IMG/VR virus record: IMGVR_UViG_3300044638_009648
Strand: one strand, 5' to 3'
DNA from: a virus
Lineage: Duplodnaviria; Heunggongvirae; Uroviricota; Caudoviricetes
DNA: 64,000 bases
The notes under the pieces are model-generated. The model worked only from the letters and a program-made list of their open reading frames with translations. It made no database searches and had not been told where the DNA came from. The translations under genes and the position numbers were made by a program. Positions 4,912 through 47,833 of the stretch are shown here, piece by piece. The first letter of the stretch is position 1; each line of letters begins with the position of its first letter.

Positions 4912-5822
4912 TGGAAGATAAAAACGAAGTTTTAGTTGACCTCATCCGGGATGTTCTCGGAGATGAAAAGCAGCATTATGAATCCAAGGGACAGATATCT
5001 TTCGATTGTCCTGTTTGTGCCGCAGAAAAAGGTGTAGAAGGTGATGGTAAGGGAAACCTTGAAGTAAATTATTTCCGTGGGGTCTATAAGTGTTGGGCTT
5101 GTTCTGAAACTAGTGGCACCCAAGGAGTATTAGGTAAACTTTTCGACCAGTTTGGTAACAAAAAACAACGTCAATTATGGGAACTTCTTAAACCCGAAGA
5201 CGAAAGTGAAAAGGAGAAACCTAAAATCAAAGTTCGTTTACCCCAAGGCTATACCAAATTTAAAGACTCTAACATAAGGTTTATCCCCCACCGTGAGGCA
5301 ATTAATTATCTTTATTCACGAGGCATTACAGATGAGATGATTGATAAATATGACATTGGTTACACGGTTACGGGTGACTACGCCTATCGCATTATTGTAC
5401 CATCGTATGATATTGAAGAGGAGCTTAATTACTTTGTTGGTAGAGCTTGGGTGCCTAAGAAGATGAAATACAAAAACCCTGCTGTCCCTAAGGACGAAAT
5501 TATTTTTAACGAGAGTAGGATTGATTGGGAAAAAGATGTTTATCTTTGCGAGGGTGTTTTTGATGCCTTCTTTTTACCTAATCCAATTCCCATGCTGGGC
5601 AAGATGCTGTCGAACAAGTTGTTCGAAAACCTATACGAAAAAGTCCAGGGGGACATTCATATTTGCCTTGATGGTGATGCCTGGGATAACGCCCTTAGAT
5701 TATACCATAACTTGAATGGGGGTAGGTTGTACAATCGCATTAAAATCTTGAAGCTTCCAAAGGATAAAGATGCTTGCGATTTGAGGGGTGATATTGCTAA
5801 TTATTATTTTGAAATTAAATAA
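4911..5822 (+). CDS. DNA primase (zinc-ribbon plus TOPRIM)
   Basis: N-terminal Cys4 zinc ribbon (CPVC...x22...CWAC), TOPRIM glutamate motif YLCEGVFDAFF, and DxD motif CLDGDAWDNA. Confidence 0.72.
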   Translation: MEDKNEVLVDLIRDVLGDEKQHYESKGQISFDCPVCAAEKGVEGDGKGNLEVNYFRGVYKCWACSETSGTQGVLGKLFDQFGNKKQRQLWELLKPEDESEKEKPKIKVRLPQGYTKFKDSNIRFIPHREAINYLYSRGITDEMIDKYDIGYTVTGDYAYRIIVPSYDIEEELNYFVGRAWVPKKMKYKNPAVPKDEIIFNESRIDWEKDVYLCEGVFDAFFLPNPIPMLGKMLSNKLFENLYEKVQGDIHICLDGDAWDNALRLYHNLNGGRLYNRIKILKLPKDKDACDLRGDIANYYFEIK

Positions 5823-5823
5823 A

Positions 5824-6681
5824 ATGGATTTACATGAAATAGCTAAGGACATCAGAAATGTCGTTGAGCAAAAACGCCAAGAGCTCGGTCTTCAATTTTT
5901 TGAAGATGAACACAAATACTTGATGAAAGATTCGGATGGAAACATTCGTGAAAATTTCCCATCGGTATCAAAAATTCTTAAACATTTCTATACCCCTTTT
6001 CCAACGGAGGAAGCTGCACTAAAAAAAGCTGGAGGTGATTACATTGAGGCAGAACGTTTGATGGCTGAATGGGCTCAAGCAGGTAAAGAATCGACTAATT
6101 TAGGTAGTAGGGTACACTTTTATTTAGAAAAAGAACTTATCTCGCGTTATGGTGCTTACAAGGATGTTCGACAACCTATTTACGAATGTGATATTTTTGC
6201 TGAGGCAAAAAGTGATGCTATGATTCAAGCAGGCCATTCCTATCTTAATTTGTGTAATGAGCGCAATTTAGTGTTGCTTGATACTGAAATGGTTCTGGGT
6301 CATCCAGAATTAGGTTATACTGGTCAACCTGACAAGGTTTGGCTTACCTCTAATGCAAGTGGCACAGACTTTGGTTTGCTGATAACTGACTGGAAAAGCA
6401 ACAAGGAAAAAAATTTTCAAGTTAACTCCTACACAAAACCAATGCTACCACCATTTGAAGAGTATCCTGATAATGCCCTAGGGCATTATTACCTTCAACT
6501 ACCATTTTATGGTAAACTTCTAATCAAAATGCTTGAAGGTACCAAGTATGAAAACATCAAACTTTTAGGGTCTATTGTTGTATTACTCAAGGAAACTGAA
6601 GAATATCAAGAATTTCGTGTCCCTCGCCCCATAATCGATAGAATAATGACTATGGATATGTCCCTTGTTTTAAAAAAATGA
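5824..6681 (+). CDS. PD-(D/E)XK-type nuclease (putative recombination exonuclease)
   Basis: GQPDKVWL ... LLITDWKSNKEK matches the D...(D/E)xK core of the lambda-Exo/YqaJ/Cas4-like fold. Start set at the first ATG after the primase stop. Confidence 0.45.
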   Translation: MDLHEIAKDIRNVVEQKRQELGLQFFEDEHKYLMKDSDGNIRENFPSVSKILKHFYTPFPTEEAALKKAGGDYIEAERLMAEWAQAGKESTNLGSRVHFYLEKELISRYGAYKDVRQPIYECDIFAEAKSDAMIQAGHSYLNLCNERNLVLLDTEMVLGHPELGYTGQPDKVWLTSNASGTDFGLLITDWKSNKEKNFQVNSYTKPMLPPFEEYPDNALGHYYLQLPFYGKLLIKMLEGTKYENIKLLGSIVVLLKETEEYQEFRVPRPIIDRIMTMDMSLVLKK

Positions 6682-7854: not shown

Positions 7855-8630
7855 TTAAACGACTAGTTCACTTCTCGGATTTACACATTCGTTTATTCAA
7901 GGACCACGACCTTTATCGAAGCATTTTGACTAATGCTTTATCTGAATGGGAGGTTTTGAAACCCGACCGTATTGTCTTTACGGGTGATTTGGTGCATTCA
8001 AAAAATCAGATGACACCAGAGCTCATTGAGTTCGTGGCTTGGATTCTTAGCGAGTGTTCCAAAATCGCTAAGACAGTGCTGATTATTGGTAACCATGATT
8101 TTTTGGAAAACAACATGGCTCGCCTTGATGCATTAACACCCATTATTGAGTCATTGAACGAAAACAACATTGTTTACTACAAAGACCGTGGTGTATACCA
8201 AGATGAAAACATAATGTGGGTGGTATATTCCCTTTTAAGCCATAACATTCCACCAGAAATTCCGACCACTGATTTGAAAAAAATTGGTTTGTTTCATGGT
8301 CCAGTCGTTGGTTTAACAACAAACATTGGTTACAAGTTTGAAGACGGTTTTGAGGTTTCGAAGTTTGAAGGGTGTGATTTGGTGCTCTGCGGTGATATTC
8401 ACAAACGTCAAGTATTTGATATCCCAGGGGGTAAGAAAGCATATATGATAGGTTCAACCGTACAACAAAATTTTGGTGAAAGTATTACAAAACATGGCTA
8501 TGGAGTATATGACGTAGAATTTGATGAATATACCTTTGTAGACCTGCCTAACACCAAACCATTTCTGTCGTTCAAGATTACATCATACCAGGATTTAGAG
8601 ACTGGCTCGGAAAAACTATTGAATCTATAA
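7851..8630 (+). CDS. sbcD: SbcD/Mre11-family metallophosphoesterase nuclease
   Basis: Calcineurin-like motifs in canonical order: HFSDLH, FTGDLVH, IGNHD, CGDIHK. Confidence 0.82.
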   Translation: MIKRLVHFSDLHIRLFKDHDLYRSILTNALSEWEVLKPDRIVFTGDLVHSKNQMTPELIEFVAWILSECSKIAKTVLIIGNHDFLENNMARLDALTPIIESLNENNIVYYKDRGVYQDENIMWVVYSLLSHNIPPEIPTTDLKKIGLFHGPVVGLTTNIGYKFEDGFEVSKFEGCDLVLCGDIHKRQVFDIPGGKKAYMIGSTVQQNFGESITKHGYGVYDVEFDEYTFVDLPNTKPFLSFKITSYQDLETGSEKLLNL

Positions 8631-8631
8631 A

Positions 8632-9471
8632 ATGAGCTCCAAAGCTGAAAAGAATATAACCCTCACATCACAGGAACTAAAAGACCTTGAATCCTATTGC
8701 AAACTCAATGGTTTCGAAGTTGAAAAAGTGGTGAAGGAGTCCTATCTTCAAGGCTTTAGAATTGAAAAATATGGGTTATTGGGAAATCCAGGCGCAGTTC
8801 ATGAAAAACAAGTGCTAAAAGAGGTAATTGTTGAAAAACGGGTGGAAGTCCCAGTAGAAGTTATAATCGAAAAAATTGTTATAGAATATGTCGAAATTGA
8901 AAAAGAAATCATCCGAGAAGTCCCTAGGGAAATTGTTGTTGAAAAAATCATTGAAGTCGTTAAAGAAATCCCAGTTGAGAAAGTTATTGAAAAAACTGTG
9001 GAAGTCATTAAAGAAATACCGGTCGACAGGATTGTTATACAAGAAGTCATCAAAGAAGTTCCGGTTGAAAAAGTCGTCACCCGAACCGAGTATATTACAG
9101 ACGAGTCAAAAGTCGCTGAACTCTTGGAGGAACTTGAACAACTTAGGAATTTATCCCCAACCATTATCGATAGGGAGGTCATCAAAGAAATCCAAGTTCC
9201 CTACGAAGTTGTTAAAGAAATTCAGGTGGTTAAAGAAGTCATAGTAGAAGTGCCCGTCGAGGTCATTAGGGAGGTTCTAGTTGAAAAAAAAACTTCTGAA
9301 GATACGCAACGACTGCATGAAACACTTGGCAAACTTCGTCAAAAATCTATTGATAAGGATGTTAAGATAAAAGAACTCGAGGATGAAATAAATTCGCTAA
9401 AGAGCTTACAACAGCAACAAAAGGCTGTATATTTAAGAGGTTCAAATTTGGACAATAAACTTTATAAATAA
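8632..9471 (+). CDS. Acidic repeat protein with about 11-residue EV(I)KE(I/V)PVEKV periodicity plus a C-terminal coiled coil
   Basis: Repeated KEIPVEKVIEKT / VEVIKEIPVDR / IVIQEVIKEVP units. It is inserted between sbcD and sbcC. Confidence 0.5.
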   Translation: MSSKAEKNITLTSQELKDLESYCKLNGFEVEKVVKESYLQGFRIEKYGLLGNPGAVHEKQVLKEVIVEKRVEVPVEVIIEKIVIEYVEIEKEIIREVPREIVVEKIIEVVKEIPVEKVIEKTVEVIKEIPVDRIVIQEVIKEVPVEKVVTRTEYITDESKVAELLEELEQLRNLSPTIIDREVIKEIQVPYEVVKEIQVVKEVIVEVPVEVIREVLVEKKTSEDTQRLHETLGKLRQKSIDKDVKIKELEDEINSLKSLQQQQKAVYLRGSNLDNKLYK

Positions 9472-9476
9472 AAAAA

Positions 9477-9815
9477 ATGGATATTTTAATTTGGTTTGTT
9501 CTAGCTTATGGCTTCACAAACATAATGGTGTGGGGCTCAATCTTTGCTGGCATGAGAAATAAAATTGCTTTGATGGGTGATGACATTCTTAATCCCTTGT
9601 TCCCAATTTTCAAGTTTATCTCAGGAATTTTGTCCTGTGTAATGTGCTTCTCAACTTGGGCGGGGTTCTTCTTAGGCTTGTTGATTTACTCGCCAACACA
9701 CGAGTATTTTCAACTAACGAAGGACATTTCATGGTTCTTTGATGGACTCCTCGCCTCGGGAGCTGTATGGGCAATAAACGCCATTATTGAATGGTTTGAA
9801 AATAACAGAAACTAA
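9477..9815 (+). CDS. Small integral membrane protein
   Basis: Three or four hydrophobic segments (ILIWFVLAYGFTNIMVWGSIFAG ...). Confidence 0.4.
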   Translation: MDILIWFVLAYGFTNIMVWGSIFAGMRNKIALMGDDILNPLFPIFKFISGILSCVMCFSTWAGFFLGLLIYSPTHEYFQLTKDISWFFDGLLASGAVWAINAIIEWFENNRN

Positions 9816-9816
9816 A

Positions 9817-9996
9817 ATGGGAAAAAAAACAAAGGAACACCGCAAGAAGGTAGCTGCTCGTAACGCTAAATTGAAAGGCGAAGAGCGTGCATACCAAAAA
9901 ATTATGAATGAAGCTTACCAGAAATATATTGAGCAACTCAAAGAAGCTCAAATGTCTGGGGAGACCAAATCTGAAGAAAGTTTCACTGCTCAGTAA
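9817..9996 (+). CDS. Small basic protein
   Basis: MGKKTKEHRKKVAARNAKLKGEER...; start moved to the first ATG after the upstream stop. Confidence 0.3.
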   Translation: MGKKTKEHRKKVAARNAKLKGEERAYQKIMNEAYQKYIEQLKEAQMSGETKSEESFTAQ

Positions 9997-12975: not shown

Positions 12976-13776
12976 ATGAAAGACAAAATTACATCAATTC
13001 CCTTCAATCAAGAAGAAATCGCAACTTATCTCAAAGATATTCGCAAAATAAAAGTTATGACTCCTGAGCGTGAGCGCGAATTAGCTCAACGAATTTTATC
13101 AGGAAATATCTCTCTCGTAGAAAAACGAGAAATCGAACGTGAATTGCTTATTGGTAATCTTAGATTTGTTATTACTGTTGCAAAACAGTACCAAAACCAA
13201 GGTTTGGAATTGGCCGATTTAATTGCAGAAGGTAATTTAGGTTTACTTAAAGCTGTTGAAAAGTTTGATTGGTCGCAACAATTGCGATTTATTTCTTATG
13301 CGGTATGGTGGATTCGTCAAGCTATATTGCAATCGTTGAACGAAAATTCTAGAACAATTCGACTTCCGGTCAATGTTGTTCAAGAATTGCAAAAAGCAAA
13401 AAAACTCGTTGAAAATAACGGTCAAGACCTGCCCGATAAATTTGCGACTTTACCATATACAATAAATTATGATTCTCCATTAAATGAAGAAGGAGATACT
13501 TTGTTGGATGTATTAAAAAACCCAGATGCGGCAATGCCTGACTCTATTTTTGATACTAAAGAAATGTTGAAAGATAAGCTTTTAAACGTAATGAATATTT
13601 TAGATAATCGTGAACGAGTAATTATTGAGGATTACTTTGGTATTTCAGGTCAAACAAGAACTTTGGAGGACATCGGAAACGATTTTCAACTAACGAAAGA
13701 AAGGGTCCGTCAAATTAAAGAAAAAGCTTTACGAAAACTTCGTAATGAATCTGGACAATTGTTTGAATACCTTTAA
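12976..13776 (+). CDS. Sigma-70 family RNA polymerase sigma factor (regions 2-4)
   Basis: Region 2: DLIAEGNLGLLKAVEKFD and FISYAVWWIRQAI. Region 4: LEDIGNDFQLTKERVRQIKEKALRKLR. Confidence 0.85.
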   Translation: MKDKITSIPFNQEEIATYLKDIRKIKVMTPERERELAQRILSGNISLVEKREIERELLIGNLRFVITVAKQYQNQGLELADLIAEGNLGLLKAVEKFDWSQQLRFISYAVWWIRQAILQSLNENSRTIRLPVNVVQELQKAKKLVENNGQDLPDKFATLPYTINYDSPLNEEGDTLLDVLKNPDAAMPDSIFDTKEMLKDKLLNVMNILDNRERVIIEDYFGISGQTRTLEDIGNDFQLTKERVRQIKEKALRKLRNESGQLFEYL

Positions 13777-19110: not shown

Positions 19111-19155
19111 CCTGGAAAAAAAATAAAAAGTAATTATAATTCTCCATAGGAAACT

Positions 19156-19626
19156 ATGGAGAATTTTTTTAACTGGATGTCTAAACCTATCCCGAGCCAC
19201 GAAGTAGAAGTATGGTTTCAAATCCATAACATTTTCCCTGAAAAGGTTGAATTATATGGCGATATATTTCAATCGCTGTCAATTGTAATTAGAGAAACCT
19301 ACTTAGGGGATTCTGTTAGTGAGACTAGAATAGTTTTAACTACTGAAGACATTACTAATCATTTTGACTGGTGCTGGAAAAAAACACTCAAGGATTTTGA
19401 ATTGGAAAATTTATCTATAGACGCTGAGGGAAATCATAAAGATTATTTTAAAAATTTTTTTAATGACAGTTTCTATCGTCAAAATTCTGGTGATGTAAGA
19501 AATTCTATACCAAAATTTATAAATGAGCTTTTTGATTTGAATAAACCATTTGCAAAATCGGATTTAGACATTTTAACTGAAATTTATAAACTATTAGATA
19601 AACACGTAAGTTATTCTAACTCTTGA
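19156..19626 (+). CDS. Hypothetical protein
   Basis: 156-aa ORF. Confidence 0.4.
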   Translation: MENFFNWMSKPIPSHEVEVWFQIHNIFPEKVELYGDIFQSLSIVIRETYLGDSVSETRIVLTTEDITNHFDWCWKKTLKDFELENLSIDAEGNHKDYFKNFFNDSFYRQNSGDVRNSIPKFINELFDLNKPFAKSDLDILTEIYKLLDKHVSYSNS

Positions 19627-19694
19627 CCCATATAATATGCTTGATTATATTCTAGTATATTGTTTATAAACATAAAATTAATTAAAAGAAAAAA

Positions 19695-19868
19695 ATGGAA
19701 ACATTAGAGCAAATTAAAGCCCTTACTGAATCCTTGACAGTTGACGCTGAAAAGTTTTATAAAGGCAACAAAAGTGCTGGAACAAGAGCACGTAAATCAG
19801 CTCAAGAATTGAAAGCTTTGCTTCAACAATTCCGTCTCGAAATTCTTGAGGAAGGTAAGAAAAAGTAA
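19695..19868 (+). CDS. Histone H1-like small DNA-binding protein (Bacteroidetes type)
   Basis: 57 aa (below the ORF-track cutoff): METLEQIKALTESLTVDAEKFYKGNKSAGTRARKSAQELKALLQQFRLEILEEGKKK. It matches the short 'histone H1' family of Bacteroidetes (xxxDAEKFYxKxNxAAGTRxRKxxQExKxL). Confidence 0.55.
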   Translation: METLEQIKALTESLTVDAEKFYKGNKSAGTRARKSAQELKALLQQFRLEILEEGKKK

Positions 19869-20046
19869 AAATGTTACAAATAGAGGCTTTATTCCTTTTT
19901 ATATTCATTTTTACTACTCAAATAATATTGAAAAATATTATTAAAATAACGGGTACCCTACTCGGAAAAGAATTTTTTTTTTCTGGTAGGGACCTTTTAT
20001 TTCTTTATCTTTGCTTAAGCTATTTTATAACTTATTTATATTACAT

Positions 20047-20475
20047 ATGAATTTTTACACTGTTTTAGAACCTTTTATGGAATATTTTTTTTCCATAAGA
20101 AAATTAGAAAATTACTTATCATTTGATTTGGTTATCCCCAAAAGTTGGGGTATGCCTAAATCAGTTTCTCAAGATAATCAAATAGTTCCTTTTGAATCTT
20201 CAAGTTCTGAAAATATGAGGGGAATTAGTTTAGTTTGTGAAGCTACCCCTGAAGAAACTGATAAAGCGATTAAAGCTATTCTTAAAATTATTAGGGTGAA
20301 TAAGGAAAGAGAAGAAAAGGAAATTCTATTTAACGATGTTGTATTAACTCTGAAAAAAACATTTGAAAGTTCAGATTTAACACATCTAAAAAAACTCCAA
20401 TTTCACTTTGAAACTGACAAACCAAAAGAACTAGAAGAAGATGGACAAACAAAAACTATTGGATTGGCTGAATAA
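20047..20475 (+). CDS. Hypothetical protein
   Basis: Start moved to the internal ATG, downstream of a TATCTTTG motif at about 20003. Confidence 0.35.
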   Translation: MNFYTVLEPFMEYFFSIRKLENYLSFDLVIPKSWGMPKSVSQDNQIVPFESSSSENMRGISLVCEATPEETDKAIKAILKIIRVNKEREEKEILFNDVVLTLKKTFESSDLTHLKKLQFHFETDKPKELEEDGQTKTIGLAE

Positions 20476-21464: not shown

Positions 21465-22388
21465 ATGAAAAATTATTTTGAAATATTAGGCGTCTCAGAA
21501 GATGCTAACGATGATGAGATTAAGAAACAATATAGATTATTATCAAAAAAATACCACCCTGACATAAATCCTGGCGGGGCAGATAAATTCAAAGAAATTG
21601 CCGAAGCTTACGATGTTTTATCTGACCCAGATAAAAAAATAAGATACCAACAACAAAAAAACAACCCTTTCAACGGTGGACCATTTGAAGAATTCTTCAA
21701 AAATGTTTACTCCAGTGGGCCTGAATTTCACCACAAAAGAAAAGTTGCTGATAAAATCATAAAACTACCAGTAAGTGTTTCAGAATCTTATAGAGGGATT
21801 TCTAAACAAATTAATTATCAAAGAAACATCGCCTGTACGGATTGCAATGGAAATGGCGGTGAAAACATACCATGTAGTCAATGTCAAGGTTCAGGATTCT
21901 TTTTTCAAATTTTGGGCTCAGGATTTTTCCAACAAAAGCTAAGAGTGGCGTGTCCATCTTGCCAGGGAAAGGGAAAAATCATAGTGTCTTATTGTGGCAC
22001 GTGTTCCGGAGTTGGTACAAAGTCAAATTTTGAAACTATAAATGTTAATCTACCCAAAGGTATTGATGACGGGCAATTTATGAAACTTGAAGGTAAAGGA
22101 GATTTTATCCAGGGAATGTACGGTGACCTAGTTTTACAAACCACAATGCAACAAGATGGTGAGTTCCAAAAAATGGGCGTTGATTTGATTTATAATTTAA
22201 TTTTAGACTTAGAAACTATTAAGGGTGAAATATTTCAAATCCCTCATCCTGATGGTGAATTGAAAATTGGTGCGCCGCAAATTATTGACACAAATAAACC
22301 GCTAAGATTAAAAAATAAAGGTTTCCCCGGGGGGGACATGTATGTCAAGATTAATGTCGTATATGATAAATCAAAACAGGTTGACTAA
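21465..22388 (+). CDS. dnaJ: DnaJ/Hsp40 co-chaperone (J domain, CR zinc finger and C-terminal domain)
   Basis: J domain with YHPDINP (HPD motif), followed by four CxxCxGxG zinc-finger repeats (CTDCNGNG, CSQCQGSG, CPSCQGKG, CGTCSGVG). Confidence 0.85.
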   Translation: MKNYFEILGVSEDANDDEIKKQYRLLSKKYHPDINPGGADKFKEIAEAYDVLSDPDKKIRYQQQKNNPFNGGPFEEFFKNVYSSGPEFHHKRKVADKIIKLPVSVSESYRGISKQINYQRNIACTDCNGNGGENIPCSQCQGSGFFFQILGSGFFQQKLRVACPSCQGKGKIIVSYCGTCSGVGTKSNFETINVNLPKGIDDGQFMKLEGKGDFIQGMYGDLVLQTTMQQDGEFQKMGVDLIYNLILDLETIKGEIFQIPHPDGELKIGAPQIIDTNKPLRLKNKGFPGGDMYVKINVVYDKSKQVD

Positions 22389-22780: not shown

Positions 22781-24202
22781 ATGATTTCGATGGTAACCAT
22801 GACAAAATCAAAAAATGCGCTCTCTCGTTTTGAGTTCTTGTTCAACAAGTATGTCAACCTTGAGAAATGGATGAGTTCTGAATATGAACTAAACTTTTTC
22901 CCTTATTATAATAGCGTGTTTGAAACAATCACATCCAAAGTGAATGTTGCAGATTTTTTTACCATCATTTTGTTTGACCCTACAACCCGTTTAAATGGTA
23001 TTACAGAACTTTACATCCAAAAGATGCTCGAAAATAAGACTCTTAATTTATCAGACTTGTGTGGTAAAATAAAAGTTGGTGAATATTCCGAGTGGTTAAT
23101 CAAACAGTTTTTGAATGTAGTATCCAACCAATCTAATGATAGTTCCGGTCAAGCTCGTGAAACTCTTTTACTGCGTGTTCGTTTTATTGAAGACCTCTAT
23201 AAGGTGCAAGAAAACCTTACGAAGTTTCATAGGTTCAAAAACCGTCTTATTGAAGATAATAGAGACATTAATAAACTTACGATTGGGGATTTGGAGTTTC
23301 TGATGTCGGAGTATTCTCTGGAAAAAACTAAGGCTACGGCAGAGGAGAAAGAGTCGGCAAAGAGTTCGTATTCATATCCTGGTTCGGAAATCGTTTTCAA
23401 AGGACTTAAATGGACAGTTGTCAAAATTAGTCAATTGAACGACTTGGCCAAAGATGCTGCATGTTTCTTTGGGGGTTATGATTTGAAACCAACAATGGGT
23501 GAAACAGCCTGGTGCACAGCCTCTCCTGGAACTTACAACCGTTACAACTATCATGCAGAAAAAGGTCCTTTGTATGTAGTGCTCCCTAATGAATGTGATA
23601 CGTTTGGAAAAAAAACAGGACTACCGTCAGTTAGGTATCAATTTCACTTCTCCACAAATCAATTCATGGACAAACACGACAAGAAAATTATTTTGACGGA
23701 TTATCTCAATGGTCCTATGTTGGAGCTTAAAGAATTTTTCAAACCTGAATTCGCTGCTGGATTGATAGGTAATGGTGGTGAAGAACTTTTGATTGATGAT
23801 TTTGAAAACGGTTCGGTTGGTAAGTACATTAAGTTGTATGGTCTTGATGATTTGTTTGATATTATTCCAGATACCTTGACCAAGATACATGTTAAAAATA
23901 GCAAAGCTGGTGTATCTCTGATTTTACCGGCCTCAATCACCCGGTTTAAAAATCTAACATCAATTTACTTCAAGAACTGTCTGTCAGAAATCCCTGAAGA
24001 AATCTGTTCACTTGAAAATCTTGTTTTTATAGCATTAGAGGGTAATCAAAATCTCAAGCAACTACCTGAAAAAATTATCGACTTACCAAAACTCTTATTC
24101 TTAAATCTAAAGGGTTGCTCTAATCTCACTCTCTCCGATTACTTTAAATCTAATAGTTTTGAGTTTGGTCCTGGTCTATGGAAAGGAAAAGCTATGATAT
24201 GA
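22781..24202 (+). CDS. Paralog family member 2: N-terminal WCTAS-motif domain fused to C-terminal leucine-rich repeats
   Basis: ETAWCTASPGTYNRYNYHAEKGPLYVVL core. C-terminal LRRs: LTSIYFKNCLSEIPEEICSLENLVFIALEGNQNLKQLPEKIIDLPKLLFLNLKGC. Confidence 0.55.
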   Translation: MISMVTMTKSKNALSRFEFLFNKYVNLEKWMSSEYELNFFPYYNSVFETITSKVNVADFFTIILFDPTTRLNGITELYIQKMLENKTLNLSDLCGKIKVGEYSEWLIKQFLNVVSNQSNDSSGQARETLLLRVRFIEDLYKVQENLTKFHRFKNRLIEDNRDINKLTIGDLEFLMSEYSLEKTKATAEEKESAKSSYSYPGSEIVFKGLKWTVVKISQLNDLAKDAACFFGGYDLKPTMGETAWCTASPGTYNRYNYHAEKGPLYVVLPNECDTFGKKTGLPSVRYQFHFSTNQFMDKHDKKIILTDYLNGPMLELKEFFKPEFAAGLIGNGGEELLIDDFENGSVGKYIKLYGLDDLFDIIPDTLTKIHVKNSKAGVSLILPASITRFKNLTSIYFKNCLSEIPEEICSLENLVFIALEGNQNLKQLPEKIIDLPKLLFLNLKGCSNLTLSDYFKSNSFEFGPGLWKGKAMI

Positions 24203-24236
24203 GTGTAATATAAGCTACAACAACATATTTATTATT

Positions 24237-26096
24237 ATGAAATTACTTAATATCTTAAATGGTACTCTTATAGTAGAGGTTTCTGAGAGCCTTAAGAAAA
24301 AGCTTTTGGATAAATTTAAACTTGAAACTCAAGACACTGAGAAAGATATTCTCGAATATATTGAGAGCTTCGAAAAATACCAACGGTCGCTTCCAGCTGA
24401 CCAGCGAGACATCACGCGTTACGATTTCAAAACTCTGAAGTCCTTAATTGACTCGATAGAAAATGGTAAAACTCGTAAAGCTGATGTGAATTCTGCGATT
24501 ACTAGTATAATCAAAAAAACACAGGAAAAAAAAGAAGTTTTTTCGTTACCAGAGTTACAGTTAGCGGTAAAAAAGTTTTTTGAAATTCAATCTGAAATAA
24601 AAGATGCTAACAAAGATATTAATAAGTTCAGTTATTTAAAACTCATACAATTTCTGGAAAAAAATTACGAGGACTTATTAACTCAGAAATTATTAAACAA
24701 ATTCAAACCGGAAAACCAAATTCTCACAAACGAGCAAATTTTATCTTATATTTCAGAATATATTGAAAATTTTAATGATATACCCTTTGATACGCCAGGT
24801 GCTGATTTAATGTCCTTTACCCAATTTGAACATTTAATTGATGCGATGATTGCAAAAAGAGGTCTTGGAAAAAAAACCAAAACTGAATTAAAAGATATTC
24901 CTCCTATCTATGATGATGGCGAAGACTTCAAAATTTATGCACCAACAGGAAAGGAACACTGTATCAAACTAGCCCATGGGCGTACTTGGTGTATTGGCTG
25001 GCTTGGTGGTCGAAACTTGTATTACAATTATCGAATAGGGAATGAAAGAACCATTTATTATGTTATAGACGAATCTTTAGACTACGAAGACCGTTATTTC
25101 GCAAATGTGATTTTGGTTGACCCAAGGGGTGGTACTTCTTTTGCTGACAAGACCAATTCTAGACCATTTGATGGCAGTGTGAATTTGCCTTGGGACGAAA
25201 TCTCTGGTTTCATTCCAAAGTTAAAAAATCTAAAAAATTTATTCGTTTCTAGACCCCTTAGCGAGGATGAAATCGAAATGCGGGACAGATATCAAAACAT
25301 AGAGTATGATAGACGTGGCAATAGAAGATTACCCAATAATCAAACCCCGATGGAATATTTTGATTCTCCAGAAAAGATTGCACAATGGATGGAAATTAAA
25401 GGGCCTGAGTTATTTGATGAAGATTACGCTAGTTTACCCCAAGAATTGAAAAAGAAGTACGTTGCTCTTGGATTTGATTTAACACCCGGTCAAATTGCTA
25501 CCTCTGAAGCTTCTGTTTTGAATTATTACGCTAAGAGAAAAATTGAGAATATTAAACAGAGCACTTTAAATAAGCTTGATGATGGTGATATTGCTTTATT
25601 AAATTCCCCAATTTTTAAGCAATTGAAACAGGAGTTGAAACCTCGTTTCAGTCAAGGTCTTTCAAGAAACTCAGACCCATCTGAATTTGAAGTACTTGGT
25701 TTTAGTAGAAACAGTGAAGTGGGTAAGTTTTTAAAGTTGTACAGTTTGGAAGACTTTATTGAATTCATCAATCCCAATGTAGAATCTATAACAATTCAAG
25801 GTGACGATTCTAATGTTAAAATCAAAATACCTAGAGCTATAGTTGAATTTAAAAATTTGGGAAGTTTAGTTTTGTCGAATGGTGTTATCGATGAAATACC
25901 GGACTACATTTGTGAACTCAAAAATTTGAAATTCTTAGGTTTACAGAATAATCCCGGAATCACTAGATTACCTGATTGTGTTGCAGATTTACCTTTACTT
26001 GAAATTCTAAATTTGCAAGGTTCGGATAATGTTGTTATTCCTGAATCAGTTAAAAATAGATTCTCAGAGGACTTAGGTCCTGGCATTTGGACGTAA
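24237..26096 (+). CDS. Paralog family member 3: WC-motif domain fused to C-terminal leucine-rich repeats
   Basis: HGRTWCIGWLGGRNLYYNYRIGNERTIYYVID core. LRRs: LGSLVLSNGVIDEIPDYICELKNLKFLGLQNNPGITRLPDCVADLPLLEILNLQG. Confidence 0.55.
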   Translation: MKLLNILNGTLIVEVSESLKKKLLDKFKLETQDTEKDILEYIESFEKYQRSLPADQRDITRYDFKTLKSLIDSIENGKTRKADVNSAITSIIKKTQEKKEVFSLPELQLAVKKFFEIQSEIKDANKDINKFSYLKLIQFLEKNYEDLLTQKLLNKFKPENQILTNEQILSYISEYIENFNDIPFDTPGADLMSFTQFEHLIDAMIAKRGLGKKTKTELKDIPPIYDDGEDFKIYAPTGKEHCIKLAHGRTWCIGWLGGRNLYYNYRIGNERTIYYVIDESLDYEDRYFANVILVDPRGGTSFADKTNSRPFDGSVNLPWDEISGFIPKLKNLKNLFVSRPLSEDEIEMRDRYQNIEYDRRGNRRLPNNQTPMEYFDSPEKIAQWMEIKGPELFDEDYASLPQELKKKYVALGFDLTPGQIATSEASVLNYYAKRKIENIKQSTLNKLDDGDIALLNSPIFKQLKQELKPRFSQGLSRNSDPSEFEVLGFSRNSEVGKFLKLYSLEDFIEFINPNVESITIQGDDSNVKIKIPRAIVEFKNLGSLVLSNGVIDEIPDYICELKNLKFLGLQNNPGITRLPDCVADLPLLEILNLQGSDNVVIPESVKNRFSEDLGPGIWT

Positions 26097-26484: not shown

Positions 26485-27240
26485 ATGAACTCACTCTCTC
26501 TCCAAAACCTCGGCAGCAAAGTGCCCTCACTTTTTGCCAACACAGCATCACCCAAAGTATCTGACAAATATGCTTTTGTTCCGACTTTGGAAATTATCGA
26601 GAAGTTTGAACAAGATGGTTGGAAGATTGCCAGCGCTATCCAAAAGGGAAAATCGCAATTCCATGCTCACGAAATTCGTTTAAGCAACGGTCAACTACCT
26701 GCAGTTGGTGATTCATTGATTCAGGCTGTAATCCAGAACTCCCACGACGGCACCAAGCCTTTGCACATTCAAGCTGGACTGTTCCGCCTCGTATGTTCAA
26801 ACGGTCTTACGATACCTACTGCGGCTGCTGTAGATTTTAAACTCCGCCACAAAGGGTTGGAAATGGGAGATATTCGTCGCATCACTGATGAATTTGCTAA
26901 AACCATCCCACAACTTCAGACTAAGGTTGAGATATTCGAAACAAAGGTTATGACTGAACAGGAGAGCGTAGATTTTGTTAACAAGGCTATGATGCTTCGT
27001 TGGAACCAGGGTTCGCTTCCTAAAATCGATGTTGAGTCTTGGTTGGAACCTTTGCGTAAAGAAGACCAGGACCCTACCATGTGGAAGGTGTTTAACCGGG
27101 TCCAGGAGAAGTTTGTTCGTGGTGGAGAGCAGGTTCAAAACCAGAAGGGTCGTTTTATCAAGATGCGTGAACTTAAGAACTTCGATGTTGTAAACCGTAT
27201 TAATACCGACCTTTGGGAGCTTGCTGAATCTTACTGCTAA
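26485..27240 (+). CDS. DUF932-like phage/plasmid protein (putative)
   Basis: NSHDGTKP ... RLVCSNGLT resembles the NSxDGS / VCxNG pattern I associate with DUF932. It is followed by an intrinsic terminator. Confidence 0.45.
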   Translation: MNSLSLQNLGSKVPSLFANTASPKVSDKYAFVPTLEIIEKFEQDGWKIASAIQKGKSQFHAHEIRLSNGQLPAVGDSLIQAVIQNSHDGTKPLHIQAGLFRLVCSNGLTIPTAAAVDFKLRHKGLEMGDIRRITDEFAKTIPQLQTKVEIFETKVMTEQESVDFVNKAMMLRWNQGSLPKIDVESWLEPLRKEDQDPTMWKVFNRVQEKFVRGGEQVQNQKGRFIKMRELKNFDVVNRINTDLWELAESYC

Positions 27241-29889: not shown

Positions 29890-32800
29890 ATGCCTAGCAA
29901 TATAACTATATTTCCTAGTAACTTAGTTCCTCAACCTTTAAGGAGACCGAATATTGTTTTTGAATATTCAGTGTCAACGATGAAGCTTGAGGTTCTTTTT
30001 GCTGCGGCTATTCAAATTGCAAATCAACTCCTTATAGCACCACAATCTGGTTGTACTGAATTTTCAATTGCTGCGACGAGTAGTCCAAGTGCTACTGTTC
30101 AATATACTGATTGTAATACTGGAGAATCAAAATCTATTGTTGTTCCTAATGGTTCTACATGGTACCGATGCGCAAGAACTGGAACTGTTTCAACAACATC
30201 TGGAACTTCAACAAATACCAGCTTAGGTGCGTGTTACCCGAAAGTCCAAATTTATAGTGGTCTTACCGTTAACAATTATCTTAGCATTGGCGGAGTTCAA
30301 GTTTTAAACGGTACGGGAAATTGGTTAGGTCCGGGAACAAATATTACTGGAGCTCAAGGGGCTCAAGGAGCAACTGGCGCACAGGGAGCAACCGGCGCTC
30401 AAGGAGCACAAGGAGCTACAGGCTCACAAGGGGCAGTTGGGGTCCAGGGTGCTCAGGGGGGCACCGGAGCACAAGGCCCCAGGGGTAATCAAGGTGCTCA
30501 AGGCGCTATCGGTTCACAAGGAGCTACGGGAGCCCAAGGACTTCTAGGGACTACAGGCGCTCAAGGGGCAACTGGCTCCCAAGGAGCTACTGGAGCCCAA
30601 GGTCCTCGAGGGCCTCAGGGAGCAATTGGTGCACAAGGTGCTGTTGGTGCGCAAGGGACCCAAGGACCTAGAGGTAACCAAGGAGCTCAGGGTGCTGTGG
30701 GGTCTCAAGGTGCTACTGGAATCCAAGGTAGTAGAGGACCTCAGGGTGATTCAGGAGCCCAAGGTGCGCAAGGTGGTACAGGAGTACAAGGTCCTAGAGG
30801 TAACCAAGGTGTGCAAGGTGCTACTGGAGATTTGGGTGGACAAGGAGCCCAAGGTGCTGCTGGACCAAAAGGGGATGGTGGTGCGTCTGGAGCGCAAGGA
30901 GCTACAGGAGGTCAGGGTCCACGAGGTCCTCAAGGTGCTGTTGGTTCACAAGGTGCACTCGGAGCTCAGGGAGCTCAAGGAACTGTCGGCCCACAAGGAG
31001 CCCAAGGTGCCACGGGTGCACAAGGAGCCACCGGAGCCCAAGGTTCCAGAGGACCCCAGGGTGCCCAAGGAGCCCAAGGAGTGCAAGGTGCGGTCGGTGC
31101 CCAAGGCGATAAAGGGAATACAGGTGCTCAAGGTGCTCAAGGTGCCACTGGTGCTATTGGCTCACAAGGAGCTAGAGGACCGCAAGGAGCCCAAGGAGCA
31201 ATAGGTTCTCAAGGAGCCACAGGAGCACAGGGACCTAGGGGTCCTCAGGGTTCTATTGGCGCACAAGGAGCAACTGGACCAACTGGTGCCCAAGGCACTG
31301 TTGGACCTAAAGGAGAAGGTGGTGCCTCAGGAGCTCAGGGAGCCACAGGAGCACAAGGCTCAAGAGGAAATCAAGGGGTTCAAGGAGCCACAGGTTCTCA
31401 AGGAGCTACTGGAGCTCAAGGACAATTAGGTCCCCAGGGTGTACAAGGAGCAATCGGTTCCCAAGGTGCGACAGGAGCACAAGGTGCAAGAGGACCTCAG
31501 GGAGCTCAAGGCGCAACTGGAGCTCAGGGAGCAACTGGAGCGCAAGGGGCCAGTGGACCCCAGGGAGCTATAGGTATACAAGGAGCCACAGGAGCCCAAG
31601 GAGCTCAGGGAGCTCGAGGTCCACAGGGTTCTGTTGGTGCTCAAGGAGCACAGGGTGCTTTAGGTGCTCAAGGTGCTGCCGGTCCAAAGGGAGACGGCGG
31701 CGCAACTGGTTCTCAAGGAGCTACTGGAGCTCAAGGACAATTAGGTCCCCAGGGTGCACAGGGAGCAATCGGTTCGCAAGGTGCCACAGGAGCACAGGGT
31801 GCAAGAGGACCACAAGGAGCTCAAGGAGCTACGGGAGCTCAAGGAGCCACAGGAGCCCAAGGTTCAAGAGGACCCCAAGGAGCTATCGGTGCTCAAGGAG
31901 CACAAGGAGCCACAGGTGCTCAAGGTTCAAGAGGTCCGCAAGGTCCTGTCGGAGCCCAAGGAGCACAAGGAGCCACAGGTGCTCAAGGTTCAAGAGGTCC
32001 GCAAGGTGCCATTGGGTCTCAGGGTGCTACCGGCGGACAAGGGGCTCAAGGTGCTGCTGGTCCCAAAGGCGATGGTGGTGCATCAGGCGCAACTGGAGGC
32101 CAAGGAGCACAAGGTGCTAAAGGTCCTCAGGGTTCTAATGGCGCTCAAGGAGCCCAAGGAGCAACTGGTGCCCAAGGACCAAGAGGTCCCCAAGGAGCTA
32201 TCGGAGCCCAAGGTGGTACTGGTAACACAGGAGCTCAAGGAGCCAAGGGTCCGCAGGGTCCATTAGGCTCTCAAGGAGCAACGGGTAATACAGGAGCTCA
32301 AGGCGCTAGAGGACCTCAAGGAGCAACTGGTTTTGAGGGAGCAACTGGCTCAACAGGTGCTCAAGGTCCACGCGGACCTCAAGGTGCTGGCGGGTTTCAA
32401 GGTGCTACCGGAAATCAAGGAGCACAAGGGGCTGTTGGTCCAAAAGGCTCGGCCGGCGCTCCTGGTAATCCAGGTGCAACTGGCGCACAAGGAGCTAGAG
32501 GACCACAAAGTGATGCTGCCCCCGTTGCTGGAGCTCAAGGAGGTACTGGTGCGCAAGGCAGCAGAGGCCCCCAGGGCGCTCAGGGGGCCCAGAGTGGTAC
32601 AGGATTCCAAGGGGCACAAGGCGCTAGAGGTCCACAAGGAGCACAAGGAGCACAAGGTGCCACAGGGAACACAGGGGCTCAAGGGGCTCGAGGCCCTCAA
32701 GGAGGTAAAGGTGGCACAGGTCCAGTAGGAGCAATAGGTGCTCAAGGTTCCCGTGGTCCTCAAGGCCTAGTGGGTGCTCAGGGTGCTACTGGATTTTCAG

Positions 32801-33771
32801 GTGCACAAGGGGCAAGAGGTCCCCAAGGAGCAACAAATGGAGCTTTACAAGGTGCTACAGGAGCTCAAGGTTCCAGGGGACCACAGGGAGCTACAGGTTT
32901 TCAAGGTTTTCCTGGTTTTACTGGATTTCCGGGTGCCAATGGACCCCAGGGTGCTCAGGGAGCCCAGGGTGCTAGAGGTCCACAAGGAGCTCAAGGGGCA
33001 CGAGGTCCTCAAGGTGCACAGGGTGGCACGGGTCCTGTGGGTAACACTGGAGCAAGGGGTGCCCAAGGGGCAACGGGTAGTCAAGGATTCCAAGGAGCAC
33101 AAGGTTCTTTAATTCTTGGACCTCAAGGGGCACAGGGTGCCACAGGAGCTACCGGTGCTCAGGGACCCACTGGTCCAACCGCACCAAGTTGTGTTGCACA
33201 TTTTGTGTCTAACTGTTATAGTAGTGACGTGGATGCTTGTGGTGCGAAATCTCCAGGCGATTATCAAACGATTTATTCCCCTTGTGCTGTTTTGGCAAAC
33301 GGTTGCCGCCTTTGGGCAGACTCTTTATGTACAACTGGTTGCCCTTGTGACCCTGGGTTTGAATACATATCTGACGGTGTTAATGTTTGGTTAGTAGACG
33401 CTAACTGCGAATTAGCTAATGAGACACCCTGTACCTCTGTTTCTGATGGTAGATTAAAAACAAACGTGTTAACCATTGATAATTCTTTGGAATTATTGCT
33501 GAAGTTGGAACCTGTAGAATTTGATTGGAAAGAAATAACTCCGGAATACAAATATTTTGTGGAGAAAGGTATTACCCACTCTGTTGGGTTTATTGCTCAG
33601 CAAGTAAAAACTGTTGTTCCCGAAATTGTTCAAATGCGACCAAACGGATATTATACGGTTGATTACCCCCGAGTTAACGCTTTACTTGTTGAAGGTATAA
33701 AGGAACAACAAGTATTTATTGAGGACTTGGAAAAAGACATAACTGAACTTGAAAAATTATTTGAATTGTAA
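29890..33771 (+). CDS. Collagen-like fibre protein 1 (1293 aa) with Cys-rich module and C-terminal peptidase S74 intramolecular-chaperone domain
   Basis: About 940 residues of uninterrupted Gly-X-Y ([16 protein letters not shown]...). The C-terminus SDGRLKTNV ... [16 protein letters not shown] matches the endosialidase / tail-fibre auto-cleaving chaperone domain (S-D-x-R-L-K-x-N). Confidence 0.85.
30349..33180 (+). repeat. Gly-X-Y (GGN-GCN-CAR) triplet-repeat tract of fibre 1
   Basis: Direct 9-nt periodicity visible in the sequence. Confidence 0.9.
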
Positions 33772-36700
33772 TGGCTATTGATGTCATCATTTATCCCACT
33801 GGTGTGACTGGTAATGCAATCCCTCAAATTATTTTTGAGGATGCTGCTGGTGCCAAAATGGGTTTGATATATGAGGGGCCAAATTTAAGGTTTTCAGCTT
33901 CAACATCCATATCCTTGGTAACGGTAAGCCCAACGTCTGTTATTACTTCGGGTACTAGCGTTAGTAACGCCACAACTGGTATTTGGGCTGGGGAAACTTT
34001 GATGATTAACACCATTGGTGAATGGGTGGGACCACCCTTTAATATTCAAGGTTCTCAAGGAGCTCAAGGAGCAATAGGTTCCCAAGGAGCCCAAGGTGCT
34101 CAAGGAGCTCAAGGTGCTAAAGGAGCGCAAGGTGCCATAGGACCTCAAGGCGCCCAGGGTGCTCAAGGTGCTCAAGGCGCCCAAGGCGGTGTACAAGGTG
34201 CGCAAGGAGGCACTGGCGCTCAAGGAGCACAAGGTGCTCAAGGAGCACAAGGTGCTGTACAAGGAGCCCAAGGAGCTACCGGTGGCCAGGGAGCTCAGGG
34301 AGCACAGGGAGCACAGGGAGGTGTCCAAGGAGTCCAGGGTGCAACCGGAGCTCAAGGTGCCCAAGGAGCCGCTGGAACCCAAGGAGGAGTTCAAGGGGTG
34401 CAAGGTGCCACAGGAGGTCAAGGAGCTCAAGGAGCTACCGGTGCTCAAGGAGCAACTCAAGGTGCTATCGGTCCCCAAGGGGCACAAGGAGCACAAGGTG
34501 CCGCGGGAACTCAAGGTGGTGTCACTGGAGCTCAAGGAGCAAAAGGATTTCAAGGAGCACAAGGAGCACAAGGTGCCCAAGGTGGCGTCACTGGAGCCCA
34601 AGGAGCTCAAGGAGCGCAGGGGGCACAAGGTTCCCAGGGAGCTCAGGGTGCACCTCAAGGTGCTACAGGAGGTCAAGGTGCCCAAGGTGCACAAGGTGGA
34701 ATTGGTGCTCAGGGTGGAACTACTGGTGCCCAAGGTGCTCAAGGTGCTACAGGAGCTCAAGGTGCTACAGGAGCTCAAGGAGCAACTCAAGGTGTCCAGG
34801 GTGCCACAGGTTTTACAGGAGGTCAAGGTGTCCAAGGCGCACAGGGTGGTGTTCAAGGAGCCCAAGGTGCCATAGGAACACAAGGTGCTACTGGAGGTCA
34901 AGGAGCGCAAGGGTCTCCCACAGGAGGTCAGGGAGCTACAGGCTCACAGGGTGCACAAGGTTCTCAAGGGGCCCAAGGACTAGCAACAGGCTCTCAAGGG
35001 GCACAAGGTGCCCAAGGAGGACAAGGAGCTCAGGGAGCCCAAGGTGGCGTAACTGGAGCTCAAGGAGCTCAAGGAGCTCAAGGCGCTCAAGGTGCTATTG
35101 GTGCCCAGGGTGGTGTTGTCGGAGCCCAAGGTGCTATAGGAGCGCAAGGTGCTACGGGAGCTCAAGGTGCACAAGGTGGTGTTACAGGTGCTCAAGGAGC
35201 TACAGGCGGACAAGGAGCTCAAGGAGCAACCGGTGCTCAAGGATTACCTACAGGAATTCAAGGCACAACAGGCGCTCAGGGAGCTCAAGGTGCTACTGGT
35301 GCCCAAGGTTTACCCACAGGAGCCCAAGGTGCTCAAGGAGCCACTGGAGCTCAAGGTGCTACTGGTGCCCAAGGATTGCCCACGGGAAACCAAGGTGCTC
35401 AAGGTTCCCAAGGAGCACAAGGGGCTCAAGGTGCACAAGGTGGTGTAACAGGCGCTCAAGGAGCCCAAGGTGCCCAAGGTGCCACTGGTGCCCAAGGTGC
35501 ACAGGGTGGTGTCACTGGAGCCCAGGGCGGGACAGGTGGACAAGGAGCACAAGGCGCTCAAGGAGCCACAGGTTCTCCCCAAGGAGCTCAGGGAGTTCAA
35601 GGGGCTACTGGTGCCCAAGGACAAGTTGGTGCGCAAGGTTTACCCACAGGAGATACCGGAGGTCAAGGAATTCAAGGGTCACAAGGTGCCACTGGTGCCC
35701 AAGGCTCCGTACAAGGAGCCACAGGCTCTCAAGGTATTACAGGAGCACAAGGTGCCGTAGGAGCCCAAGGTGGTCCAACTGGAGCTCAAGGAGCCACAGG
35801 AGCACAAGGTGCACAAGGAGCCACAGGAGCTCAAGGAGGTATAACAGGTGCTCAAGGAGCACAAGGAGCCCAAGGAGCTCAAGGCGCAACGGGTGCTCAA
35901 GGAGGTCCAACAGGTTCTCAGGGTGCCCAGGGAGCTCAAGGCGCTCAGGGTGCCACAGGTGCAACTGGAGGTATTACTGGGGCCACAGGGGCACAAGGTG
36001 CTCAAGGACCCCAAGGTGCTCAGGGTGCCACAGGGGGCGTTACTGGAGCTACTGGAGCTACTGGTGCACAAGGACCACAAGGTGCTCAAGGTGCTGCTGG
36101 ATTACCCCAAGGCGCACAAGGACCACAAGGTGCTCAAGGTGCTCAAGGTGCTAAAGGAGCGCAAGGTGCCATAGAAGGTGCCGATGGTCTTCAAGGTTCT
36201 CAAGGACCCCAAGGAGCTCAAGGAGCTCAAGGAGGCGGAACAGGTGCTCAAGGCGCACAGGGACCCCAAGGAGCACAAGGAGCTACTGGTGCTCAAGGAG
36301 GACCTATGGGTGCCACAGGAGCACAAGGAGCACAAGGAGCACAAGGTGCCACAGGAGCGCAAGGTGCTGTCGTAGGTGCTCAAGGAAACACACCGTTTCC
36401 AGGCGCTACAGGAGGAACTGGAGCACAAGGATTGCCAACTGGAGGTCAAGGATTTCAAGGTAGCCAAGGATTTCAAGGAGCTACTGGTGCCCAAGGAGGT
36501 GCACAAGGAGCACAAGGAGCAATAGGAGCCCAAGGGGCTCAAGGAGCCACAGGGGCTCAGGGAGGCGTAACAGGTGCTCAAGGTGCACAAGGCGCACAAG
36601 GACCACAGGGTGCCACAGGTGCTCAAGGAGGCCCAACAGGAGCCCAGGGTTCTTTAGGTCCCCAGGGTGCACAAGGAGCACAAGGAGCGACAGGTGGTGT

Positions 36701-37358
36701 GACAGGTGCACAAGGTCCCCAAGGTGCACAGGGAGCACAAGGCCCCCAAGGGGAAAATAGTGCAACCCCTGGCTCACAAGGAGCTCAAGGTCAAGTAGGT
36801 GAATTACCTGGAGCACAAGGTGCATCCAATGCAACAACAGGAGCCCAGGGGGCTACACCTGGAGCAGGACCACAGGGAGCTCAGGGAGCACAAGGTTCTG
36901 AAGGTATAAAAGGACCCCAAGGTGCGCAAGGACCTAGTACAGGAGGGCCTCCAGGACCCCAAGGTGCCCAAGGAGCCCAAGGTGCACAAGGACCAACTGG
37001 ACCAACTGGACCACCCTCAGATTATAGATTAAAAACTAATGTTATCCCATTGACAAATGTTACAAGTAAAGTTATTGACATGCGAGGGGTCAAATTTGAA
37101 TGGCTAGAAAATATCCCCCAATTGGAACATATACCAGAAGCCCAACATTTTTATCTCAAGGGAAAAAGTATTGGATTTATTGCCCAAGAAATTGAAAAAA
37201 TATTTCCAGAATTAGTTTTGGAAGATAGATATGGGTATAAGAACATTCAGTACGATATTTTAGTTGCCATTGGCGTTGCTGCTGTAAAAGAAAATAATGA
37301 AAGAATTATTCTATTGAAAAATAAAATCAAACCCTTAAAATCATTTATAGGTGGCTGA
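33771..37358 (+). CDS. Collagen-like fibre protein 2 (1195 aa) with C-terminal S74 chaperone domain
   Basis: Gly-X-Y repeats with frequent one-residue register interruptions (GGVTG, GLPTG, GATQG). C-terminus [14 protein letters not shown] ... [16 protein letters not shown]. Confidence 0.85.
34048..37016 (+). repeat. Gly-X-Y triplet-repeat tract of fibre 2
   Basis: Seen directly in the sequence. Confidence 0.9.
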
Positions 37359-47818: not shown

Positions 47819-47833
47819 TATCTTTGTACTATG
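47819..47833 (+). promoter_or_regulatory. TATCTTTG-N4-ATG promoter/start arrangement
   Basis: Motif at 47819-47826, ATG at 47831; immediately downstream of a terminator. Confidence 0.5.

Follow-up and report, generated by a model that had tools for sequence, protein, structure and literature searches.

We analysed a stretch of 64,000 nucleotides of Caudoviricetes DNA (IMG/VR record IMGVR_UViG_3300044638_009648; the window, from here on), in which a short open reading frame encodes a protein of the Hc1 family. The frame is followed closely by two further small genes and preceded by a gene for a protein of 156 amino acids (Table 1). The 57-aa product is METLEQIKALTESLTVDAEKFYKGNKSAGTRARKSAQELKALLQQFRLEILEEGKKK, with a mass of 6.5 kDa, a pI of 9.4 and 12 lysines and arginines against 9 aspartates and glutamates. 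Most genes of the window lie in order on one strand, at 30-39% G+C, and besides those listed in Table 1 they encode an SbcC-like nuclease subunit, an RNA ligase, a DNA polymerase and an amidase.

Table 1. Features of the window discussed in the text, with positions counted from the first nucleotide of the window.
Feature	Position	Strand	Details
Sigma-70-family factor	12976..13776	+	regions 2 and 4; PHROG 351, 182 bits
156-aa protein	19156..19626	+	conserved DxxxHFxWCW motif; syntenic upstream neighbour of Hc1
Sigma-70-type promoter-like site	19623..19651	+	-35 TTGACC 19623-19628, 17-nt spacer, -10 TATATT 19646-19651
Leader motif (A)ATAAAC	19666..19671	+	about 25 nt before the Hc1 ATG
Hc1-family (PF07432) gene	19695..19868	+	ATG 19695, TAA 19866-19868, 57 aa
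59-aa hydrophobic protein gene	19871..20050	+	open frame in relatives
RNA hairpin	19944..20002	+	inside the 59-aa ORF; U-rich run after it in the window
142-aa protein	20047..20475	+	overlaps the 59-aa ORF by 4 nt (ATGA-type junction)
DnaJ, full-length	21465..22388	+	J domain, CXXCXGXG, C-terminal domain
Three consecutive giant genes (1293, 1195, 1139 aa)	29890..40770	+	collagen-like G-x-y repeats
Glutamine synthetase-like gene	44658..45824	+	Gln-synt_N and Gln-synt_C domains
TAT(C/A)TTTG boxes	47819..47830, 48453..48464, 49548..49559, 55889..55900, 61438..61449

The length of the Hc1 reading frame proves nothing by itself, since in DNA of 31% G+C a frame of 57 codons stays open by chance about 1% of the time per start (our own arithmetic). 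The sequence of its product is far more telling. It matches the Pfam Hc1 model (PF07432) with an E-value of 6.3e-22 and 77.6 bits, against a gathering cut-off of 23.5, and residues 1-56 of the protein are aligned with positions 1-57 of 57, i.e. with the full model. Among 5.8 billion proteins, a word-indexed search retrieved 1010 homologues, of which more than 1000 carry the PF07432 domain. The selection test was made on the first 52 codons of 86 related loci and the window, which comprise 52 distinct nucleotide versions. Among these the first, second and third codon positions were variable at 30, 19 and 51 of 52 sites, the mean pN was 0.136 compared with a mean pS of 0.665, and the median dN/dS was 0.10. 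The start of the protein (MET[LV]) is kept in all relatives compared. The Pfam match, the excess of third-position variation and the low dN/dS identify the ORF as a genuine gene, which is under strong purifying selection in its frame. With its 57 codons it does fall under common ORF cut-offs, as a chance ORF or a pseudogene in AT-rich spacer DNA would. That reading is refuted by the same three lines of evidence and by the intact ORF in every related contig examined, and we give it practically no credence. An antisense ORF of 61 aa over the same gene gains no support from the pattern of codon-position variation. There is no Hc1 paralogue in the window, and PHROGs has no family for the protein.

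The first-pass annotation had described this ORF as an unannotated gene with the motifs DAEKFY, KGNK, AGTRARK and QELKAL, and had proposed a database comparison. The ORF exists as described, all four motifs are present in its translation, and the full-length PF07432 match and the homologues above supply the expected similarity. The word unannotated has to be dropped: an identical protein is found on at least 59 contigs in the public gene calls of JGI, ENA and NCBI, with PF07432 already precomputed.

The closest cellular relatives of the phage protein are short proteins labelled "histone H1". All five organism-named homologues from the profile search are of this kind and belong to Bacteroidota, i.e. 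Pedobacter panaciterrae, a Cyclobacteriaceae MAG, a Mucilaginibacter sp. and two from Sphingobacterium. The Mucilaginibacter protein, encoded on a 3.7-Mb contig, has the highest identity to the phage protein among the chromosomal ones (61%), and a scan of the genome collection with a narrower alignment returned a single locus, again in Mucilaginibacter. The short Bacteroidota proteins (e.g. those of Mucilaginibacter sp. P0366, HZY35967.1, Pedobacter panaciterrae and Sphingobacterium thermophilum) are 43-61% identical to the phage protein and resemble it in length (57-62 aa) and in having a single PF07432 domain. Those named in the profile search measure 58-62 aa, with identities of 45-61%. They have a core motif in common with it, KF-x-KGN-x-(S/A)AGTR-x-RK...Q-x-(L/I)K...R-x-E. 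The proposed Bacteroidetes-type "histone H1" identity has therefore held up, in that the protein is a full-length short member of the Hc1 family whose organism-named cellular homologues are all Bacteroidota. The phage copy differs from these in its setting. It is fixed in a phage-specific block made up of the 156-aa gene, Hc1, the 59-aa membrane-protein gene and the 142-aa gene, whereas the one cellular copy examined, on a bacterial MAG contig, has unrelated neighbours, namely glycosyltransferases and a 5'-nucleotidase. No experimental study of any short Hc1-type protein was found in the literature searched.

The domain is shared with Hc1 (HctA, about 125 aa) of Chlamydia trachomatis, whose N-terminal domain is what the Pfam model describes. 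According to PMC2848022 (which refers to Pedersen 1996 and Remacha 1996) and PMC3469542, dimerisation of chlamydial Hc1 is mediated by its conserved N-terminus; DNA is bound by the Lys-rich C-terminus, which is also the part that resembles eukaryotic H1. The protein brings about condensation of DNA and repression of transcription as well as translation (PMC2848022, PMC3469542), and both RNA binding and translational repression have been described for chlamydial Hc1 and Hc2 (PMC2848022). The phage protein lacks the Lys/Ala-rich C-terminal half that is responsible for DNA binding in the chlamydial protein (PMC2848022, PMC3469542); it has no Lys-rich tail and ends at residue 57 with GKKK. With the HctA equivalog model of NCBIfam (NF051889) it reaches 19.2 bits against a cut-off of 100, and the alignment is restricted to profile positions 5-55 of 121. 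As judged by these alignments, the phage protein is the N-terminal Hc1 domain and GKKK only, like the Bacteroidota proteins.

Nor is the protein a linker histone. Hc1 is the sole Pfam family matched at E-values up to 1, with no linker-histone H1/H5 domain among the matches, and the predicted fold is a two-helix hairpin as opposed to the winged helix of linker histones. "Histone H1" is a historical database label, and on proteins of this type it should not be taken as homology to the eukaryotic linker histones. The condensation and shut-off functions of chlamydial Hc1 are not transferable to the tail-less phage protein without experiments. The roles suggested in the first-pass annotation, i.e. 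compaction, packaging or interference with host nucleoid proteins, are weakened, as the protein is without the Lys-rich DNA-binding tail.

Members of the same family are also carried by other phages. These are the "histone H1" of Synechococcus phage S-SRM01 (QPX48246.1) and Hc1-like ORFs of three uncultured huge phages (LR756500, LR745206 and LR756502). They are 37-51% identical to the protein of the window over 75-91% of its length, and belong to different lineages and hosts, S-SRM01 being a T4-like cyanophage and the huge phages exceeding 460 kb. The gene that follows the Hc1 copy of S-SRM01 is unrelated to the 59-aa membrane ORF, and its "histone H1" is not discussed in the paper on S-SRM01. 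A phage-encoded nucleoid-associated protein with an experimentally established function is TF1, an HU-like protein of Bacillus phage SPO1. It illustrates the same concept, a small DNA-architectural protein of host type that is kept by a phage, although its fold and family are unrelated to those of Hc1.

A single-sequence AlphaFold2 model of the phage protein is a two-helix hairpin, with helices at residues 2-22 and 26-56 and a pLDDT of 90.6. Sequence and profile searches of the PDB, as well as Foldseek, gave only insignificant matches to coiled coils or hairpins. Foldseek matches in BFVD are also weak, and the best of these include viral proteins named "Histone H1". Residue conservation was assessed in an alignment of 58 representatives of clusters at 50% identity. 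K20, N25, A28, R31, R33, Q37, K40 and R47 all occur in the phage protein, and each of them is either invariant or conserved to at least 88% among the 58 sequences; the invariant or near-invariant polar set comprises K20, N25, R31, R33, K34, Q37, K40 and R47 along with D17 and E49. Hydrophobic a/d stripes run along helix 1 (positions 4, 7, 11, 14, 18 and 21) and helix 2 (28, 32, 36, 39, 43, 46 and 50). Positions 10 and 42 are hydrophobic as well, as would be expected of a four-helix bundle formed by two hairpins. With a spacing of i+4/i+3, R33, Q37, K40, Q44 and R47 share a single face of helix 2. Because dimerisation alone does not explain the invariant Arg and Lys residues at the surface, a contact with nucleic acid is implied. 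We infer both dimerisation and DNA contact from the conservation patterns and the model of the monomer, and consider that the protein is most likely a dimeric, helical-hairpin nucleic-acid-binding protein.

The gene neighbourhood of Hc1 is highly stable. In 86 loci that were picked via Hc1, the 156-aa gene lies directly upstream in all 86, the 142-aa gene is present in 85 at a constant offset of 348-381 nt, and DnaJ is found in 82; the offsets of the neighbours are nearly constant. The Hc1 proteins of these 86 loci are 75-86% identical to that of the window (median 80%) whereas the medians for 13 neighbour proteins are 35-60%, a comparison that is biased since the loci were selected on Hc1 similarity. 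Within the block, no gene is conserved more strongly than Hc1 in these 86 loci. A reciprocal set, picked via a neighbour, removes part of the bias. A profile of the 156-aa protein matched at least 475 contigs of IMG/VR, and in 80 of 80 loci picked from these an Hc1-family ORF of at least 69 bits ends 230-270 nt downstream. In more distant relatives, with Hc1 proteins 55-63% identical, the gene order is kept: the genes for the amidase and for proteins of about 440 and about 155 aa come before Hc1, and a small ORF, a gene for a protein of about 150 aa and DnaJ come after it. We interpret Hc1 as a core gene that is inherited vertically in a widespread lineage of jumbo phages.

The 156-aa protein has no family match in Pfam or PHROG and no PDB relative by profile, and its single-sequence AlphaFold2 model is poor (pLDDT 44.5). 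The 142-aa protein has no Pfam or PHROG match. In one related contig (L006, positions 5463..5930) the homologue of the 156-aa gene carries an in-frame stop, which may reflect an error of sequencing, a pseudogene or recoding. After the 444-aa gene of the window there is a hairpin of 12 bp with a T-run behind it (19138..19165, + strand). This terminator-like element would sequester the start of the 156-aa gene, because the ATG at 19156 is inside its 3' arm.

The Hc1 gene was said earlier to lie in an AT-rich, intergenic-looking stretch. On the upstream side this is correct, as positions 19627-19694 form a true spacer of 68 nt; downstream, the description fails, since positions 19871-20050 hold a conserved small gene. 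The spacer carries most of a promoter-like site of the sigma-70 type that has 10 of 12 consensus matches; its -35 element shares nucleotides with the stop codon of the 156-aa gene. When 51 distinct upstream regions of related contigs are aligned, a TT(T/G)AC element is seen to be conserved, with a TAnnnT-like element 16-18 nt downstream of it. The leader motif AATAAAC is kept in at least 90% of these 51 regions, and elsewhere in the window it is not a recurrent upstream motif. The remainder of the Hc1 leader is A-rich and has no Shine-Dalgarno sequence.

The small gene downstream starts 2 nt past the Hc1 stop codon, and its own stop codon overlaps the ATG of the next gene at 20047. In all 52 distinct related sequences the frame of 59 aa stays open and can be aligned. 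It has a dN/dS of 0.38, and its product a conserved motif, (L/I)S(I/L)SY(I/L)(I/L)TY. The protein is strongly hydrophobic (GRAVY 1.22), probably with two membrane-spanning segments, and has no Pfam or PHROG family. The gene is uncalled in the closest contigs and called in more distant relatives.

Within this gene lies an RNA hairpin with a minimum free energy of -26.8 kcal/mol (z = -5.8 against shuffled sequences). Across 50 distinct sequences its partners can pair in 78.9% of cells, compared with 32-44% when the partners are slid. Both sides change in 17 of 22 pairs, with pairs of the core stem switching between AU, GC and CG, and the covariation score was reached by none of 500 shuffles. Some of the compensatory changes lead to different amino acids (e.g. 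N/S/G in the 3' arm), so that selection acts on the structure of the RNA. There is no Rfam family for the hairpin, no second copy in the window, and no counterpart in two more distant relatives (contigs L170 and L172). An intergenic terminator in spacer DNA was considered and rejected, since the hairpin sits inside the conserved 59-aa ORF. The U-rich run that follows it in the window resembles the canonical terminators of the phage, and in other subclades this tail is less U-rich. We describe the hairpin as a putative terminator- or attenuator-like element, which may instead be a processing or stabilising site.

No phage in INPHARED is similar to the window at the DNA level. An identical Hc1 gene, with neighbours that are 92-100% identical, is present on a metagenomic contig of 315,966 bp, and related IMG/VR contigs reach 326 kb. 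The identical gene and the size of these contigs show the window to be part of a jumbo phage. Its three consecutive giant genes encode collagen-like proteins with 27-32% glycine that are also rich in Ala and Gln, each ending in an endosialidase-chaperone (Peptidase_S74) domain. These proteins are probably fibres. Their genes raise the local G+C content to 50-59%.

The phage can be likened to a recently described group. Perez-Hernandez et al. (Arch Virol 2025; PMC12619734) reported 25 "moraphages", which are aquatic jumbo phages of 200-307 kb with predicted hosts that are mostly Bacteroidota, especially Flavobacteriia. These carry DnaJ/DnaK and, in nine of them, glutamine synthetase; PF07432 proteins were also reported, and a role in genome compaction was speculated upon (PMC12619734). 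A PF07432 protein, DnaJ, glutamine synthetase and a genome above 200 kb are all found in the window or its 316-kb contig. Given the same gene set and the same size class, it is probable that the phage belongs to or near the moraphage lineage. The occurrence of Hc1-family genes in aquatic jumbo phages is therefore correct as an observation, and is largely known since that publication. Perez-Hernandez et al. treat the PF07432 protein as a homologue of linker histones, and their paper does not mention an architecture of the N-terminal Hc1 domain only, the status as a core gene or the operon partners (PMC12619734).

Signals in the window itself bear on the host. A Shine-Dalgarno-like 4-mer at -20 to -4 precedes only 2 of 50 genes. 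The sequence TAT(C/A)TTTG ends exactly 4 nt before the ATG in at least five genes (starts at 47831, 48465, 49560, 55901 and 61450), which suggests that their transcripts may be leaderless or near-leaderless. We take these boxes to match TAnnTTTG, the -7 box of the Bacteroidota sigma-A. Overall TANNTTTG is not enriched in the window, with 96 occurrences found against 82 +/- 9 expected, and only the position before ATGs is striking. Several of the TAT(C/A)TTTG boxes are preceded by terminators with a GC stem and a U-tract. The first-pass annotation had pointed to Bacteroidetes as the host phylum. This finds support from the organism-named homologues, the translation and promoter signals and the published host prediction for similar jumbo phages (PMC12619734), and the host is probably a member of the Bacteroidota.

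What might such a protein do? The explanation that fits best as a whole, to which we give about an even chance of being right, is that Hc1 is a nucleoid-associated protein made by a jumbo phage of Bacteroidota and expressed from a small operon of its own. Two Hc1 hairpins would pack via their hydrophobic stripes (positions 4, 7, 10, 11, 14, 18 and 21 of one helix; 28, 32, 36, 39, 42, 43, 46 and 50 of the other), forming a dimer or four-helix bundle. The assembly would show the basic residues of the hairpin tip (K20, K26, R31, R33 and K34) to nucleic acid, and would also present the R33-Q37-K40-Q44-R47 stripe of helix 2 and the short KKK tail. In the infected cell it could then coat, bridge or condense DNA, either organising the phage genome of about 316 kb or silencing the host nucleoid. 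The conserved sigma-70-type promoter would drive an operon of Hc1, the 59-aa membrane protein and the 142-aa protein, genes that are separated by 2 nt and -4 nt, respectively. In the subclade of the window, the hairpin in the second gene may be an attenuator or an mRNA-stabilising end that keeps the output of Hc1 above that of the downstream genes. Two points count against the protein part of this explanation. The net charge of Hc1 is only +3, and by analogy with chlamydial Hc1, where the passages cited above assign DNA binding to the Lys-rich C-terminal domain, the expected DNA-binding part would be missing here. Against the step that involves the hairpin stands its absence from more distant relatives.

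Being little more than the dimerisation domain, the phage Hc1 might, instead of acting on DNA by itself, form mixed dimers with the short "histone H1" of the host, and so poison or redirect the organisation of the host nucleoid. The phage and host-phylum proteins do have the same single-domain architecture and are up to 61% identical, dimerisation of chlamydial Hc1 takes place through the N-terminal domain (PMC2848022), and the hydrophobic stripes are conserved across the phage and cellular members. However, the host proteins are equally short, so the phage Hc1 is not a truncated, dominant-negative form, and the invariant basic residues that are kept in the phage clade argue for retained ligand binding; we consider a modulator of this kind unlikely. 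Alternatively, the protein could enter the capsid together with the DNA, neutralising charge and helping to pack the genome of about 316 kb. A small basic protein encoded by a core gene of a phage with a very large genome would suit this task, and the idea has been raised for moraphages (PMC12619734). It is made improbable by a net charge of +3, which is weak for a polycation, and by the make-up of the gene block (sigma factor, amidase, DnaJ and unknowns), in which no head or packaging genes are recognised.

The ligand could also be RNA. A Rop-like dimer of helical hairpins might bind structured RNA, possibly the hairpin downstream in its own operon, and act as a regulator of translation. Here the predicted two-helix hairpin fold, the covarying RNA hairpin 76 nt past the Hc1 stop codon, and the RNA binding and translational repression by chlamydial Hc1 and Hc2 (PMC2848022) all point in the same direction. 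But more distant relatives have the Hc1 protein and lack the hairpin, and cellular homologues occur in unrelated gene contexts, which leaves regulation through RNA a slim prospect. To return to the nucleoid-associated protein that we favour, a bolder version of it is that the tail-less Hc1 is a self-sufficient DNA-organising dimer of helical hairpins, acting through its Arg/Lys/Gln stripe, that is fixed as a core gene in an abundant lineage of freshwater jumbo phages, is expressed from a unit of its own and has its output tuned by the hairpin. We put this forward tentatively and hold it to be rather doubtful in full. If true, it would be the founding example of an Hc1-type phage "chromatin" protein, used for handling genomes of 300 kb or for taking over the host nucleoid.

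The phage lineage offers a clean handle on this protein family, namely a single small core gene that is the most conserved one locally, with hundreds of natural variants. If the protein binds and compacts DNA without a Lys-rich tail, the assignment of dimerisation to the N-terminal and DNA binding to the C-terminal domain of Hc1 will need revising. A DNA-compacting Hc1 would also be a new family among the phage-encoded nucleoid proteins. For annotators, it is worth noting that an ORF cut-off of 60 aa hides two adjacent conserved genes at this locus.

Some further features were seen in the window and in related contigs. Positions 22781..26096 (+) encode a pair of proteins of 473 and 619 aa with a common C-terminal PHROG 6688 segment, for which the precomputed Pfam record of matching contigs holds weak or faint leucine-rich-repeat matches; a DUF932 protein follows the pair (26485..27240, +). 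In contigs L170 and L172 a DruA-family gene (PF14236, a component of Druantia defence) lies a few kb downstream of the Hc1 block, at 8372..9547 and 8682..9851, respectively. The only tRNA gene of the window is a tRNA-Met with anticodon CAT (54912..54986, +), and TATATTTG and TATCTTTG boxes are located about 115-125 nt upstream of it, at 54784 and 54795. Approximately 420 nt downstream of the tRNA gene sits a GOLLD RNA (Rfam RF02032; 55408..55816, +), which covers positions 1-416 of 416 of the model with 301 bits against a gathering threshold of 150 (E 3e-85).
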